A stretch of DNA of 62,378 bases, filler included, from Ionaspis alba (taxonomy: Eukaryota): NCBI GenBank assembly GCA_964255285.1. It is 22 parts of 22 records of this genome, joined end to end, with 100 filler letters (N's around TTAATTAATTAA, not from the genome) between each part and the next. Parts side by side here need not be neighbours in the genome. Positions count along the whole stretch, not along the records: positions 32,306 to 35,064 come from CAXUUL010001259.1; 21 more parts are not named here. One strand, given 5' to 3'. The translations under genes were made by a program, and so were the position numbers. Shown piece after piece: positions 29,936-35,164 of this stretch (the stretch's first letter is position 1; every line of letters starts with the position of its first letter). A model generated the notes under the pieces. The model saw nothing but the letters and a program-made list of their open reading frames with translations, made no database searches and had not been told where the DNA came from.

Positions 29936-32205
29936 ATGTTCGGCCACCGAGTCCTACCGCCACTCCCTCCTCAGACTGTCTCCTCTTCCACGAATCTTCC
30001 AGCTACAAGACAGGACACTCTGCTGCAGCACAGGATCATGACGAGTGATAAGCCCCAGAGCTCTGTGGAAAGATGCATAAATCGACGATCTTCCCAGAAT
30101 TCATTGTCGCCAGCTGATAACCACCTTCCCAATTCCCCTGGTAAAGAGTCAGCGGAAGGTCTTCAGATCTCCTCTCCAGGTGCAATACGAGTGTCAGATC
30201 GCTTGATCCGTAAGCGCACATCGTCGTTGGCTTCGGCCGAAGACACGGGGAATTCAGAGAGGACGTTACCACCGATCTCGGCATCAACCACTCTTGCACA
30301 AGCTGGGGATTCGCCAAGTCAAGTCTGTCTGTGTCAACCTGACCCTAAAGTTCCTCGACCACGGAACGGTATGTAGCTATTTTGCTGAGCCTCGTCGTGA
30401 ATTATGTTGATCGCTCAACTCAATGCCCGATCTCATTCACCATGAATCAACCGTACATGGCTGACAAGAATCCCTCCCCAGCTTTCATCCTGTATCGTCA
30501 ACATCATCAGGCCAACGTCGTTGCACAGCATCCTGGATTAGCTAATCCAGAGATATCGAAAATCATTGGAGATCATTGGAGGTCTTCTCCATTAGAAGTG
30601 AAGAACCATTGGAAGATACTAGCCGAGGTGAGTCGACACAATCACCTAATCGTATCATGTAGAATCCTTGACTTATTCAGCTTAGGAAGAAAAACTTCGT
30701 CACCAGAGACAGTACCCAGACTACCGCTATCAGCCTCGACGGGCCGGACGCAATTCAATTTCCAATTCCGCATCAACAAACAGCACCGAAAAATCACGCT
30801 GCTCGAAGTGCGGCGGTAAGAGTATGTCCACACCCAACTTGTCCACACCGGGTACGGCAACTCCAGGAACCCCGATAACCGGATACGGCTCATTACCGCT
30901 CAGCACTCCCTCTACGGGAGGTAGTGGGAGTCGCTTCATGCGATTGATGGGAAGTCCGCCCGTGCCACAGCCACCCGGTTTCCGGCAACGTCCTGCAATG
31001 CCGGGCCATGGAAACCCAGCTCTACAGCTCTTGACCTCGCGAGACCGTCGCCCCGATGACCCGGCTTCTCCAATGAGTCCAGATGCCAAACGTCTTCGAT
31101 TTGGCAATGGCTCACATGCACCTTCGCGTGTTGGCAATGGCCAAACGACACCCTTTCCCTCCAATAATCGTCGAGAATCCCTACCAAGACCCGACTTCAT
31201 GCCCAAGAACCAGTTCGCAATGGCAGCTCCTCCACGTCCGCTCCACACCCACAATACCTCCCATGACAACTCCCTTACCCTCCCACCTCTGAAAACAGGC
31301 AGCGTATCCGAAGCCTCCACCCAAGCCAAATCAGTCGAAGCAATGATCATGTCTATCTCTTCGATCAACAAAATCAAAGTCCTCGCCAAGATCTGCCCTC
31401 CCCTCTCCCCACCCGGACCCATGTCCCCACCTCATTCAACCCGGGGACCCGTGATCGCCATCGACGGCGCTGACGACGAAGCCGTCAAGGCCCTCACCAA
31501 ATACCTCACCAATTTCTTCTCCAAAGACCCCGAGTACCACATCCGTGTCTGGGACAGTCCGGCGCTCGATCCCCACAACAGCGAAACCTCCTTCGCAGCC
31601 TACCTGCAGCTTATTACGCACTGGCATTCCATTTCCACCGAGATTAGCAAGTACGTCACCACTCTCCCATCACCGCGTTCGCCATCGCCCATATCGCCCA
31701 AGACCAAGCTGCCGCCGGAGTTTGAAGGGCGTATGACACGGTCTGCAAACCAGAATGCGGGTGCTGCCGCGGACAACACAGGCTTCAGGAATCCGCCCTC
31801 TCATCCGTTGCAGTCTACTTCCTCGCCTCTCCCGGTCGCTATCATCCCAGGTTTCCAGCTCACTCTTACCGATGCCGCCGCTTCCACGATCCCCATTACG
31901 GATGCTTATGCCCCGATCGATCATTGGCAGTGGATGGCGACGCTGTGGCGTGGGGTTGTGGGACCGGATATCACTATTGTCGTCAAATCCACCGGAAGCG
32001 GGAATCCGGAAGCTAACAGCGCGAATGGGGTGTCGAGTCCTAGAGATGATGGGGCTAAGGGTCAGGGGCCTGGTGTCGAGGATAGGTTGAGAGATGCGAG
32101 GGCGATTGTTGTGAGAGGTGAGGGAGGAAAAATTGGGGAGAAGGAGTTGAGGAGGGTAGGATTCGAGGTTGGAGAGTGGGTGAGGGGGTTGGCGGAGGGG
32201 AGAGG
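29936..32205 (+). CDS. MATA-type HMG-box transcription factor (Rox1/Rfg1-like), 3'-truncated just before the end
   Basis: CLCQPDPKVPRPRN|AFILYRQHHQANVVAQHPGLANPEISKIIGDHWR...WKILAE|EEKLRHQRQYPDYRYQPRR with introns 30369-30481 and 30628-30685. Long C-terminal region including DAYAPIDHWQWMATLWRG. Confidence 0.88.
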
Positions 32206-32464
32206 NNNNNNNNNNNNNNNNNNNNNNNNNNNNNNNNNNNNNNNNNNNNTTAATTAATTAANNNNNNNNNNNNNNNNNNNNNNNNNNNNNNNNNNNNNNN
32301 NNNNNGTCTGTGCTTCATTCATGACTTTCCGACCGGCAACTGTATGAGAGCTCAACAATTCAATACGCGTCACTGAGCACACATCCTGTCTGACACTCTG
32401 TCTGAGACCTGCAGCACACCTCTTGTAGACTCGAGCACTGCCATCTCCCACCACATTAGATACG

Positions 32465-34807
32465 ATGGCAGACTACAGTTATGGAGGCTCGGACGAAGAA
32501 AATGCGGAGCTGAAGAAGCTCAACACTGAAGTGGTTGGTATACCTGCAAGCCCTGCGCCGGTTCTTACTGACACTCTGTACAGTTAGAAGACCCAGATAG
32601 CTTTGAAAACTGGGAGAAATTAGTGCGCGCAGCAGAGACCTTGGAAGGAGGTCTCAATCGGAACTCGAACCCACAATCAATAGCTGCTACCAGAGACATC
32701 TACGACCGCTTTCTCGCCAAGTTCCCATTACTCTTTGGATATTGGAAGAAATATGCGGATCTGGAATTCTCGATTGCTGGGACAGAGGCAGCAGAATTGG
32801 TATTTGAATGCTGCATGACGAGGCCGGATCAAATATGCTGATGGAAGCCAGGTGTATGAACGGGGGGTAGCGAGCATTACAAACTCTGTTGATCTCTGGA
32901 CAAACTACTGCGCCTTCAAAGTCGAAACCAGTCACGATTCCGAGGTCATCCGAGAGTAAGTAGAGAAAGATGTACTTTCCTTCCCATAACCTCGACACCT
33001 ACAGCATGGCTTCCCACGACATGGGGGGCTGCCAGAGGCTCTTCAAGCTTTGCTTGTCGATGGGTGAGAAAGTCACAACCAGCTCTACGAGATTGCTTCT
33101 CACATTAGACACTCAGGCGATTTCTTTTCCTTCAATCCCAGATTGACCACTTCCACGCCATCACTGTTTTCACCCGAGAGTAAAGTTTGATGGATTTTGT
33201 CGGGATGATCCCATATATGCATGTTTGCTGCCCTCTCTGCCTTCTCCTTGCGATATGATCCCTGTCCCATGTTGCGATGCATTACTGACAATAGATACCT
33301 ACAGACTCTTTGAGAGGGGAGCTACATGTGTTGGCCTAGACTTTCTTGCTCATCCATTTTGGGATAAGTATCTGGAATTTGAGGAACGTTTGGAAATGAA
33401 CGACAAGATCTTTGCCATATTGGATCGAGTCGTGCATATTCCGATGCACCAATATGCCAGATACTTTGAGCGCTATCGCCAGCTTGCACAATCACGACCA
33501 GTGACTGAGCTGCTTCCTCCCGATACACTCGCGCAGTTCCGTGCCGAAATCGACCGGGAGAATCGAGATGTAGCAGCTATGCAACAAATGAATGTTGAGA
33601 AAGGAGAAGCGGAGATTGAGCGAGACCTGAGAACCCGTATCGACAATTTCCATCTCGAAATATTTGGAAGAACTCAGACTGAGACCACGAAACGATGGAC
33701 TTACGAGTCGGAGGTCAAGCGTCCCTACTTTCATGTCACGGAGCTTGATGAAGGCCAGTTGGTCAACTGGCGAAAGTACCTTGACTTCGAAGAGATTGAA
33801 GGGGACTATCTGCGAACAGCATTTCTCTACGAGCGTTGTCTTGTAACATGCGCATACTACGACGAATTCTGGCTTCGATATGCTCGCTGGATGCTAGCTC
33901 AACCAAGCAAAGAGGAAGAGGTCCGCAACATATATCAGCGAGCTAGCATGCTGTACTGCCCGATCTCACGCCCTGCTGCTAGACTCCACTATGCATATTT
34001 CGAGGAAATGTGTGGTCGAGTGGAACTCGCAAAAGACATCCATCAATCCATTCTCCTCAATCTTCCTGGGCATATCGAGACGATAGTGTCACTAGCCAAC
34101 TTGTCACGTCGATACGGAGGTCTGGAAGCAGCTATCGCGGTCTACAAAGCTCAAATTGATTCGGCCGAATGCGATATCTACGCCAAAGCTGCACTTGTTG
34201 CAGAATGGGCTCGGCTCCTTTGGAAGATCAAGGGGTCCGTCGAAGAAGCTCGTCAGGTCTTCCAAAAGAATCAGCATTGGTACCTAGATAGCCGACCATT
34301 TTGGATCAACTATCTGATGTTCGAGCTGGAACAACCCACAAGTGCCGAAACGGAACCAGCGCAGTATCAGCGGATCAAGCAAGTCCATGAAGACATCCGG
34401 AGAAAGAGCCATCTGCCGCCTCTTACCATGAAGGATCTCTCGCATTACTACATGGTATATCTCCTTGAGCGAGGATCCAAGGATGCTGCCAAGGAGTACA
34501 TGATGCTTGATCGAGAAGTCAACGGGTAAGCTATTGGTTCATGGACCTCTGTTGGAGGTTCCTGTGCTGACATCACTGTACTAGACCCTTCTCAGTCCAA
34601 GCCACCATGAAAGCCAAGCTGGCTGAAGACGGCAAGACTGCAACGACCGATCGACGCCTGATAATGGAGAACGGGCACCCAGGAGTCGAAATCGACGAGG
34701 GAGCTATTCGGAGGGGCGAGAATCCATACACCAAATACTATCAACAGCAAGGCGAGCACCCTCTACCAAGTGGGAATCAGGTAAGTTTGAACCACTACAG
34801 CGCCTAA
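32465..34807 (+). CDS. PRP39: Pre-mRNA-processing factor 39 (U1 snRNP HAT-repeat protein)
   Basis: ATG 32465; introns 32534-32583, 32800-32851, 32956-33304 and 34526-34584 splice in frame. Motifs YDRFLAKFPLLFGYWKKYADLE, VGLDFLAHPFWDKY, VKRPYFHV, LYERCLVTCAYYDEFW. A further donor (GTAAGT, 34781) could extend the C-terminus. Confidence 0.95.
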
Positions 34808-35164
34808 AGCGTTTATGTTAAGTCGAAAATTTAGCCGCAACCGCTACGCTACCAGTAGACTTCAAACATCTCGTGGATCTACAAAGACCACAACGACTAG
34901 AATCTCATGGATCTTTCGGTCAATGCGGAGCTCATTATCGTGGATGTGATCCCCAAAGTGTTTGTCACGTGTGCTGGAGGAAATTTAAGTGTTGTGTATC
35001 ATAACCAGGGCTGGCTTTCTAAATGAAGATTCTGGCTTCACAAAACGCATGCAGGGAGGATCTGNNNNNNNNNNNNNNNNNNNNNNNNNNNNNNNNNNNN
35101 NNNNNNNNTTAATTAATTAANNNNNNNNNNNNNNNNNNNNNNNNNNNNNNNNNNNNNNNNNNNN

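Follow-up and report, generated by a model that had tools for sequence, protein, structure and literature searches.

In this work we describe intron 3 of the PRP39 gene of Ionaspis alba (assembly GCA_964255285.1), which lies within the window that we have analyzed, a stretch of DNA of 62,378 nucleotides (positions 1-62378). The position of this intron, its length, a series of short islands inside it and the spacing between them are conserved in fungal relatives, and premature stop codons follow when it is not cleanly removed. We consider it rather probable that intron 3 is an ancient module of unproductive splicing, acting through retention of the whole intron, through internal exons or through both. 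An earlier note on this DNA had described in the intron nested splice sites that would define two poison cassette exons. That the intron is out of the ordinary was confirmed, since its position, length and internal splice-like signals are conserved across fungal classes. It is this deep conservation that makes it more interesting than the evidence of that note implied.

The contig at positions 32306-35064 carries a single gene on the + strand, which on sequence grounds is PRP39. Pfam HAT_PRP39_N and HAT_PRP39_C matched exon 4 in a domain search, the mouse PRPF39 structure 6g70 matched the product of the same exon (3.7e-46) in a PDB search, and the closest proteins were found in lichen-forming fungi (90% for Xylographa opegraphella). 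The annotated orthologue proteins read across the junction as ...KVETSHDSEVIRE/LFERGATCVGLDF... (...SEVIRE/LFERG...), which places the productive junction at 32955>33305 and gives intron 3 a length of 349 nt, as the earlier note had it. The other four introns of the gene have only ~48-62 nt. For comparison we used a MAFFT alignment of 58 distinct intron 3 sequences, to which all the counts out of 58 given below refer. The gene and the outer signals of the intron are the following:

32465..34858, + strand: PRP39 gene from ATG to TAG, with six exons and five introns (Pfam, PRPF39 in the PDB and orthologue proteins).
32852..32955, + strand: exon 3, ending ...ATC CGA GA; its translation agrees with the orthologues up to ...SEVIR(E).
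32956..33304, + strand: intron 3, 349 nt, removed by the junction 32955>33305.
32956..32962, + strand: outer 5' splice site GTAAGTA (GTAAGT in 54/58, GTRAGT in 57/58).
33283..33289, + strand: outer branch site TACTGAC with its A at 33288 (CTRAC conserved).
33302..33304, + strand: outer acceptor CAG, conserved as YAG in the alignment, with the junction confirmed by the orthologue proteins.
33305..34525, + strand: exon 4, which codes for HAT repeats (Pfam, PDB and orthologue proteins).

Relatives were collected by scanning metagenome contigs with exon 4, which provided 79 loci (L001-L079) and, with the I. alba contig, 80 sources, 73 of them with exons 3 and 4 both present. The two exons were 320-547 nt apart, with the gap at the same codon, in 72 of the 73. 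Introns 1 and 2 of the relatives, where present, were ~44-91 nt long. The loci share 50-87% protein identity with PRP39 of I. alba, and some of them are very close to named proteins: L073 and L074 match a Tirmania protein at 99-100% identity, L029, L030 and L035 reach 93% with Rasamsonia, and L001 reaches 92.5% with Xylographa. We take these loci to be Pezizomycetes, Eurotiomycetes and Lecanoromycetes, respectively, and this spread of classes would place the origin of the intron near the base of the Pezizomycotina.

Most of intron 3 cannot be aligned among these fungi, and a few short, nearly invariant islands stand out. From the 5' to the 3' end they delimit the following elements:

32975..32990, + strand: island E1, CTTTCCTTCCCATAAC, a pyrimidine tract and a branch-like CCATAAC placed 5' of acceptor A (TAAC in 47/58).
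33002..33004, + strand: internal acceptor A, CAG/C (AG at the aligned column in 40/58).
33005..33063, + strand: candidate internal exon A, 59 nt, its body unconserved and its length conserved (median 57.5 nt).
33064..33069, + strand: internal 5' splice site A, GTGAGA, within the conserved island CGATGGGTGAGAAAGTCA (33058-33075), here E2.
33064..33116, + strand: internal mini-intron b, 53 nt (52-66 nt in 58/58), with a complete set of signals.
33096..33103, + strand: island E3, CTTCTCAC, a branch-like site with its A at 33102, containing the exact complement of GTGAGAA (33064-33070).
33113..33116, + strand: internal acceptor B, TCAG/G (AG in 54/58, CAGG in 47/58).
33117..33222, + strand: segment B', 106 nt, with a pyrimidine-rich start, a candidate for a second internal exon, provided that the GT at 33223 serves as donor.
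33187..33194, + strand: island E5, TTGATGGA, with ~80% conserved columns.
33220..33228, + strand: island E6, CATGTTTGC (GTATTTGC in one clade), with a GT at 33223 (GT within 4 nt in 56/58).

The best preserved of these signals is donor A, with GT in 58/58, GGTGAG in 57/58 and GTGAGA in 50/58. Upstream, the conserved island TTTCCTTCCCATAAC is followed ~15 nt later by CAG/C. Exon A is supported because the islands of acceptor A and donor A are both conserved, and at the level of sequence it lies between a usable 3' splice site and a usable 5' splice site, as a poison cassette exon does. In mini-intron b, the TCTCAC of E3 holds its register in 47/58 sequences, with 7 others in which it is displaced by two bases, and acceptor B falls 11-17 nt past the branch A of CTCAC (13-14 nt in 45/58). 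The GT within E6 is the sole conserved GT downstream of acceptor B; if used, it would start a last unit, c, of 82 nt. It is a plausible but unproven weak 5' splice site for closing B', given that equally weak donors (GTTTAC, GTTTTT, GTATTT) act as constitutive donors of intron 2 in these loci. Column identity in the exon bodies is ~10-30%, against strongly conserved signals at their flanks. The lengths of the segments are conserved although the sequence between the islands is not, with medians of 49.5 nt for unit a, 57.5 for A, 55 for b (range 52-66), 119.5 for B' and 75 for c. As a control we used intron 2 of the same loci, in which only the GT, the branch and the AG are kept and the top donor hexamer appears in 11/73; conservation is thus higher at the internal donor A than at a constitutive donor of PRP39.

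The sites on which the earlier parse of the intron had been built are all in place: GTAAGT at 32956, CAG ending at 33004, GTGAGA at 33064, TAG ending at 33108, GTAAAG at 33180 and CAG ending at 33304. The conservation of the internal sites in orthologues, named there as a check, holds for the borders of exon A and fails for those of the second exon:

33109..33179, + strand: exon B as first proposed, with borders that are not conserved.

Actually, the GT at 33180 was found in 1/58 and the AG at 33108 in 3/58, and the conserved second acceptor is the TCAG ending at 33116 and not the TAG before it. It had also been proposed that the internal sites copy the true ones. The likeness of the flanks is real, with 13/14 agreeing positions at the donors (TCAYCCGAGAGTAA) and 10/11 at the acceptors (GAYACCTACAG). 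The idea of copying found no support, since a local match as good as the 14-mer of the donors appeared in 6/300 shuffles and an acceptor likeness of at least 4/5 matching bases in only 2/58 relatives, which makes the latter peculiar to I. alba. An origin of the internal sites by tandem duplication was rejected on the same figures. By itself, the division of 349 nt into short GT..AG units does not exceed what chance can give. What makes the internal layout worthy of attention is its conservation across relatives and not the existence of the parse.

We have examined the reading frame of the possible transcripts. Without splicing of intron 3 the frame reads GAG TAA, an immediate stop, and a stop right behind GAG is found in 57/58 sequences. 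In I. alba, retention, A, B', A+B' and A+b+B' all lead to premature stops, with a TAA inside B' when B' alone is included and a TGA inside B' for A+B'. The outcomes predicted before for exon A alone (TAG at position +33 of exon 4) and for exon A with the first version of exon B (TGA within B) were reproduced, and the statement that only skipping yields Prp39 stands, every tested non-canonical outcome ending in a premature stop. Among the relatives, retention gives a stop in 58/58 and A+b+B' gives a stop or a frameshift in all 56 scorable sequences. For exon A alone, with acceptors assigned by a heuristic, this was the case in 49/58.

Hints at the transcripts themselves were found in protein databases. 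Our queries were P0205 and the first 131 residues of the Xylographa protein; we read also the cluster members, and gathered 181 PRP39 N-terminal proteins of less than 350 residues. In 65 of them, of mixed sources (gene models and transcript assemblies), exons 1, 2 and 3 are contiguous and the protein ends in ...IRE at the donor stop of intron 3. Another 31 start after junction 1, have exons 2 and 3 joined and end at the same stop, 34 contain intron-derived insertions, as expected of genomic read-through, and 51 end in other ways. The group of 65 includes annotated genes of 130 residues in Botrytis cinerea B05.10, Erysiphe necator, Paecilomyces variotii, Rhynchosporium graminicola and Xylographa pallens, and Logan/JGI contigs of ~0.9-6 kb. 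This suggests that RNA in which introns 1 and 2 have been removed and intron 3 has been kept is common in relatives. Besides, three proteins run past the junction in ways that read-through cannot give. P0171 (...VIRDFHST) and P0205 (...LVRDTWIATT, in 6 contigs) require a C or T after the donor, and the conserved CAG/C supplies the base that they need. P0152 (...IIREHVFLSLAPST, R-E-H-V-F-L...) best resembles the pyrimidine-rich start of B' after TCAG/G. The ab initio models of Monilinia (P0242) and Xylaria (P0249), which read the internal exons in frame, show only that predictors accept the internal sites. A look for RNA runs of I. alba returned none, and in run X1 the contigs were colinear, with no joints.

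The complementarity between donor A and E3 involves GTGAGAA and the TTCTCAC at 33097-33103. Folds of single sequences pair E2 with E3 in most relatives, with 10-11 bp in some. The donor island is also complementary to E1 (11/14 over 33060-33073); the E1:E2 helix is paired in 72.9% of the alignment cells, against 40-52% for slid registers, and it forms in the minimum-energy fold of the I. alba intron, where it loops out exon A. Some structure in intron 3 is, on these predictions, possible.

The mechanism that we propose is that intron 3 would be a regulatory intron, already present in the last ancestor shared by the sampled Pezizomycotina, if not earlier, and preserved since then. The productive mRNA would require the strong outer sites (GA/GTAAGTA...TACTGAC...CAG) to be joined over ~350 nt, a distance some six times that spanned by an ordinary intron of these fungi. 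Between them lie three internal units of ordinary intron size (a of ~49 nt, b of 52-66 nt and c of ~75 nt), with borders that are conserved but sub-optimal: CCATAAC..CAG, GTGAGA with CTTCTCAC..TCAG, and the weak GT in CATGTTTGC. Some transcripts would keep the whole intron, with the TAA at its donor, or would use internal sites, including A and/or B'. These unproductive forms would meet a premature stop more than 1.2 kb ahead of the normal one and would encode only an N-terminal piece of ~130-180 residues, devoid of the C-terminal dimerisation part, and in this way the output of Prp39 would be lowered, probably through nonsense-mediated decay (NMD). Pairing of the internal donor with E3 (GTGAGAA/TTCTCAC) or with E1 may act as a modulator by hiding or exposing the donor. 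We infer that such isoforms exist in I. alba. Their degradation would be expected, and the activity of Prp39 or of the U1 small nuclear ribonucleoprotein (U1 snRNP) could set the ratio of isoforms by a negative feedback.

Several observations weigh against this interpretation. Acceptor A has no AG at the aligned column in 18/58 sequences, among them a clade of ~10 that is devoid of it, and exon A alone is open and in frame in 9/58 by the same heuristic as above. One locus, L042 (2287 nt), has neither intron 3 nor intron 1 and keeps intron 2, as if the loss were tolerated; it represents either a lineage that has lost this intron or a contig from a transcript spliced in part. The structural data are also ambiguous. 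RNAalifold found a 6-bp E2:E3 helix with both arms invariant and no covariation, the E1:E2 pairing beats shuffles weakly (8/500 and 3/500), to a degree that relatedness alone can give, and the fold of the whole intron is no better than that of shuffles (z = -0.87). As for the proteins, some of the 65 that end at the donor stop are possibly gene-model artefacts, and some possibly come from lineages without introns 1 or 2 (L001, L002, L024, L061, L042, L069). The proteins that pass the junction are few (3/181), and no locus of the same species as P0152, P0171 or P0205 was found among L001-L079.

A more specific form of our proposal would make of intron 3 a gauge of U1 snRNP as old as the Pezizomycotina. 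GTGAGAA would be masked by CTTCTCAC, a mimic of the 5' end of U1 snRNA that would serve also as branch site of mini-intron b, with E1 as the alternative partner. At high activity of U1 or Prp39, U1 would win the masked site, the internal exon would be defined or would work as a decoy, the transcript would turn unproductive, and the output of PRP39 would fall. In this detailed form we think the idea unlikely, although, if true, it would represent a splicing homeostat that is structured and spans classes of fungi, organisms in which conserved regulation of the cassette type is considered rare.

We give a similarly low probability to a variant of the unproductive-splicing explanation that differs only in which isoform matters. 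According to it, the internal sites would be engaged mainly to block the pairing of the outer ones, the internal exons would hardly ever be included, and the regulated product would be an intron-retaining and possibly nuclear RNA. The numbers of proteins that end at the donor stop and of those that fit an internal acceptor (65 and 3 of 181) favour retention, it is the splice-site islands and not the exon bodies that are conserved, and the decoy exons of SF3B1 intron 4 are a precedent (PMC6097662). However, catalogues of open reading frames cannot measure isoform ratios, and an exon-included isoform that was efficiently degraded by NMD would be rare in assemblies too.

A constitutive role for the internal elements seems to us still less probable. 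Here the nested mini-intron b would be spliced out first and, together with helices among E1, E2 and E3, would shorten or fold the intron, letting a spliceosome that works by intron definition join the outer sites, with no regulation involved. The complete signals of unit b, with their canonical spacing and a tightly kept length, are what such a helper would show, the E1:E2 pairing that loops out exon A fits with it, and fungi are known to have nested and twin introns. But removal of b regenerates no splice site (the junction reads GG/GC), the existence of the long intron would remain unexplained when the neighbouring introns are short and one lineage lost intron 3 without trouble, and so would the large number of transcripts and models ending at the stop of the donor. 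Recursive splicing, in which a 5' splice site follows at once on a 3' one (AG/GTRAGT), was considered and rejected, as the conserved acceptors read CAG/CA and CAG/GC instead.

Long fungal introns often carry small nucleolar RNAs, and the islands could in principle belong to a hosted small non-coding RNA or to an alternative start of a shortened protein. We found no Rfam match within 32956-33304 at E <= 10 (there were two weak matches elsewhere in the PRP39 gene). The alternative start has in its favor an ATG in E6 in many relatives, at which gene callers begin MFAAL... This codon occurs in 28/58 sequences, with an open frame in phase in only 11, and a conserved alternative start was rejected on this basis. 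As the conserved islands are, besides, short and similar to splice signals, we judge a hosted element of either kind very improbable. Finally, although short GT..AG parses are easily found, the copied flanks are lineage-specific and of modest significance, and Neurospora reportedly splices random sequence (PMC4408805), an ordinary long intron with coincidental cryptic sites in low-information signals is hardly credible, contradicted as it is by segment lengths that are conserved and by islands that are nearly invariant over 58 sequences of very distant fungi when those of intron 2 are not, in loci whose 50-87% protein identities speak against close relatedness.

Other features of the gene and of the window deserve mention. 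In I. alba the segment 33227-33237 (GCTGCCCTCTC) is complementary at 10/11 positions to 33312-33322 of exon 4 (GAGAGGGGAGC), with -25.5 kcal/mol and z = -3.9, and the helix would loop out the outer branch and acceptor. As a shared feature it was discarded, since z was below -1.64 in 3/58 relatives (mean z -0.33). In seven loci (L001, L002, L024, L027, L028, L073 and L074) the gap at intron 4 was 314-440 nt and not ~55 nt, so that a second long intron appears to have arisen or been kept in some lineages. Two database proteins of relatives, P0012 and P0075, read intron 4 in frame (...REVNG, 17-23 residues, PFSVQ...), which indicates that its retention would leave the frame open in some of them. 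Within exon 4, run X1 contains two contig versions of 34022-34154 with 6 differing positions and depths of 93.7 and 46.5, which look like two alleles or strains in the sample. The window itself consists of ~22 contigs of 2.5-2.95 kb in decreasing order of size, with linkers of 100 nt between them (N44, TTAATTAATTAA, N44), and genes that adjoin in it are therefore not real neighbours. On the contig that precedes PRP39 there is a long Ser/Pro-rich open frame (30686-32205, + strand), beginning ...KLRHQRQYPDYRYQPRR, whose start resembles what we take to be the end of an HMG-box DNA-binding domain, unrelated to the PRP39 intron.

The annotation of PRP39 in public databases is affected by this intron. 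Gene predictors often split or truncate the gene at intron 3, which produces the 130-residue genes of several annotated genomes, and prokaryote-style gene callers begin many fungal PRP39 proteins (P0002, P0003, P0011 and others) at the ATG of E6. With the resulting MFAAL... models, the same artefactual N-terminus appears repeatedly in public collections of proteins.

In animals and plants, splicing-factor genes are well known to be subject to regulated unproductive splicing, and in filamentous fungi it has been documented for very few genes, without conserved intronic sequence. In intron 3 of PRP39 the internal signals, their spacing and the complementary strands are kept over lichens, moulds and truffle relatives. 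This provides a defined element, open to mutation, for studying how a spliceosome that works by intron definition picks among nested sites, and also whether the abundance of U1 snRNP in fungi is under feedback.

Our search of the literature on fungal PRP39 introns, poison exons and retention found no paper describing intron 3. In the stwintrons of filamentous fungi, a splice signal of the outer intron is split by an inner intron, which has to leave first. Both cases are introns inside introns in Pezizomycotina, but in PRP39 the outer donor, branch and acceptor (GTAAGTA, TACTGAC, CAG) are intact, unit b lies 108 nt from the donor and its removal makes no new site, and we have discarded a stwintron on these grounds. 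U1-70K, U1C, LUC7L and U1A, components of the same particle as Prp39, are balanced through unproductive processing of their own pre-mRNAs; the mechanisms differ, and none of them is a case of a fungal PRP39.

Among the described systems, decoy exons in SF3B1 intron 4 promote intron retention (Parra et al., 2018; PMC6097662). As in PRP39, a cryptic exon with functional-looking sites lies in an intron of a splicing-factor gene, and the combination of rare inclusion and common retention is also what we would liken to intron 3. The known decoys belong to mammalian introns of more than 1 kb and to exon definition, whereas the putative decoy of PRP39 is in an intron of 0.35 kb of fungi that use intron definition. 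Nearer in phylogenetic terms is srp2 of Neurospora crassa, which has a long retained intron whose stop-bearing form gains stability when NMD is impaired by mutation (Lareau and Brenner, 2015; PMC4379411). The srp2/SRSF5 orthologues share with PRP39 an unusually long intron at a fixed position in a fungal splicing-factor gene. The srp2 intron is reported not to be notably conserved among Aspergillus species and to contain no poison cassette exon; intron 3 of PRP39, unlike it, has islands conserved across classes and internal exon-like units.

The most direct comparison is with mammalian PRPF39, for which the earlier note had invoked a poison exon, correctly, since an NMD-inducing alternative exon is described in mouse and human (De Bortoli et al., 2019; PMC6582350). 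Autoregulation is demonstrated neither for that exon nor for the fungal intron. Whole-intron retention seems at least as common in fungal PRP39, which sets it apart from the mammalian exon, and what is conserved also differs, the exon and its flanks between mouse and human and the splice-signal islands, not the exon body, in fungi. Still, it is the same family, and in both cases an internal exon with a premature stop lowers, or in the fungi would lower, the amount of functional protein, leaving a truncated product that would be without the C-terminal dimerisation part.

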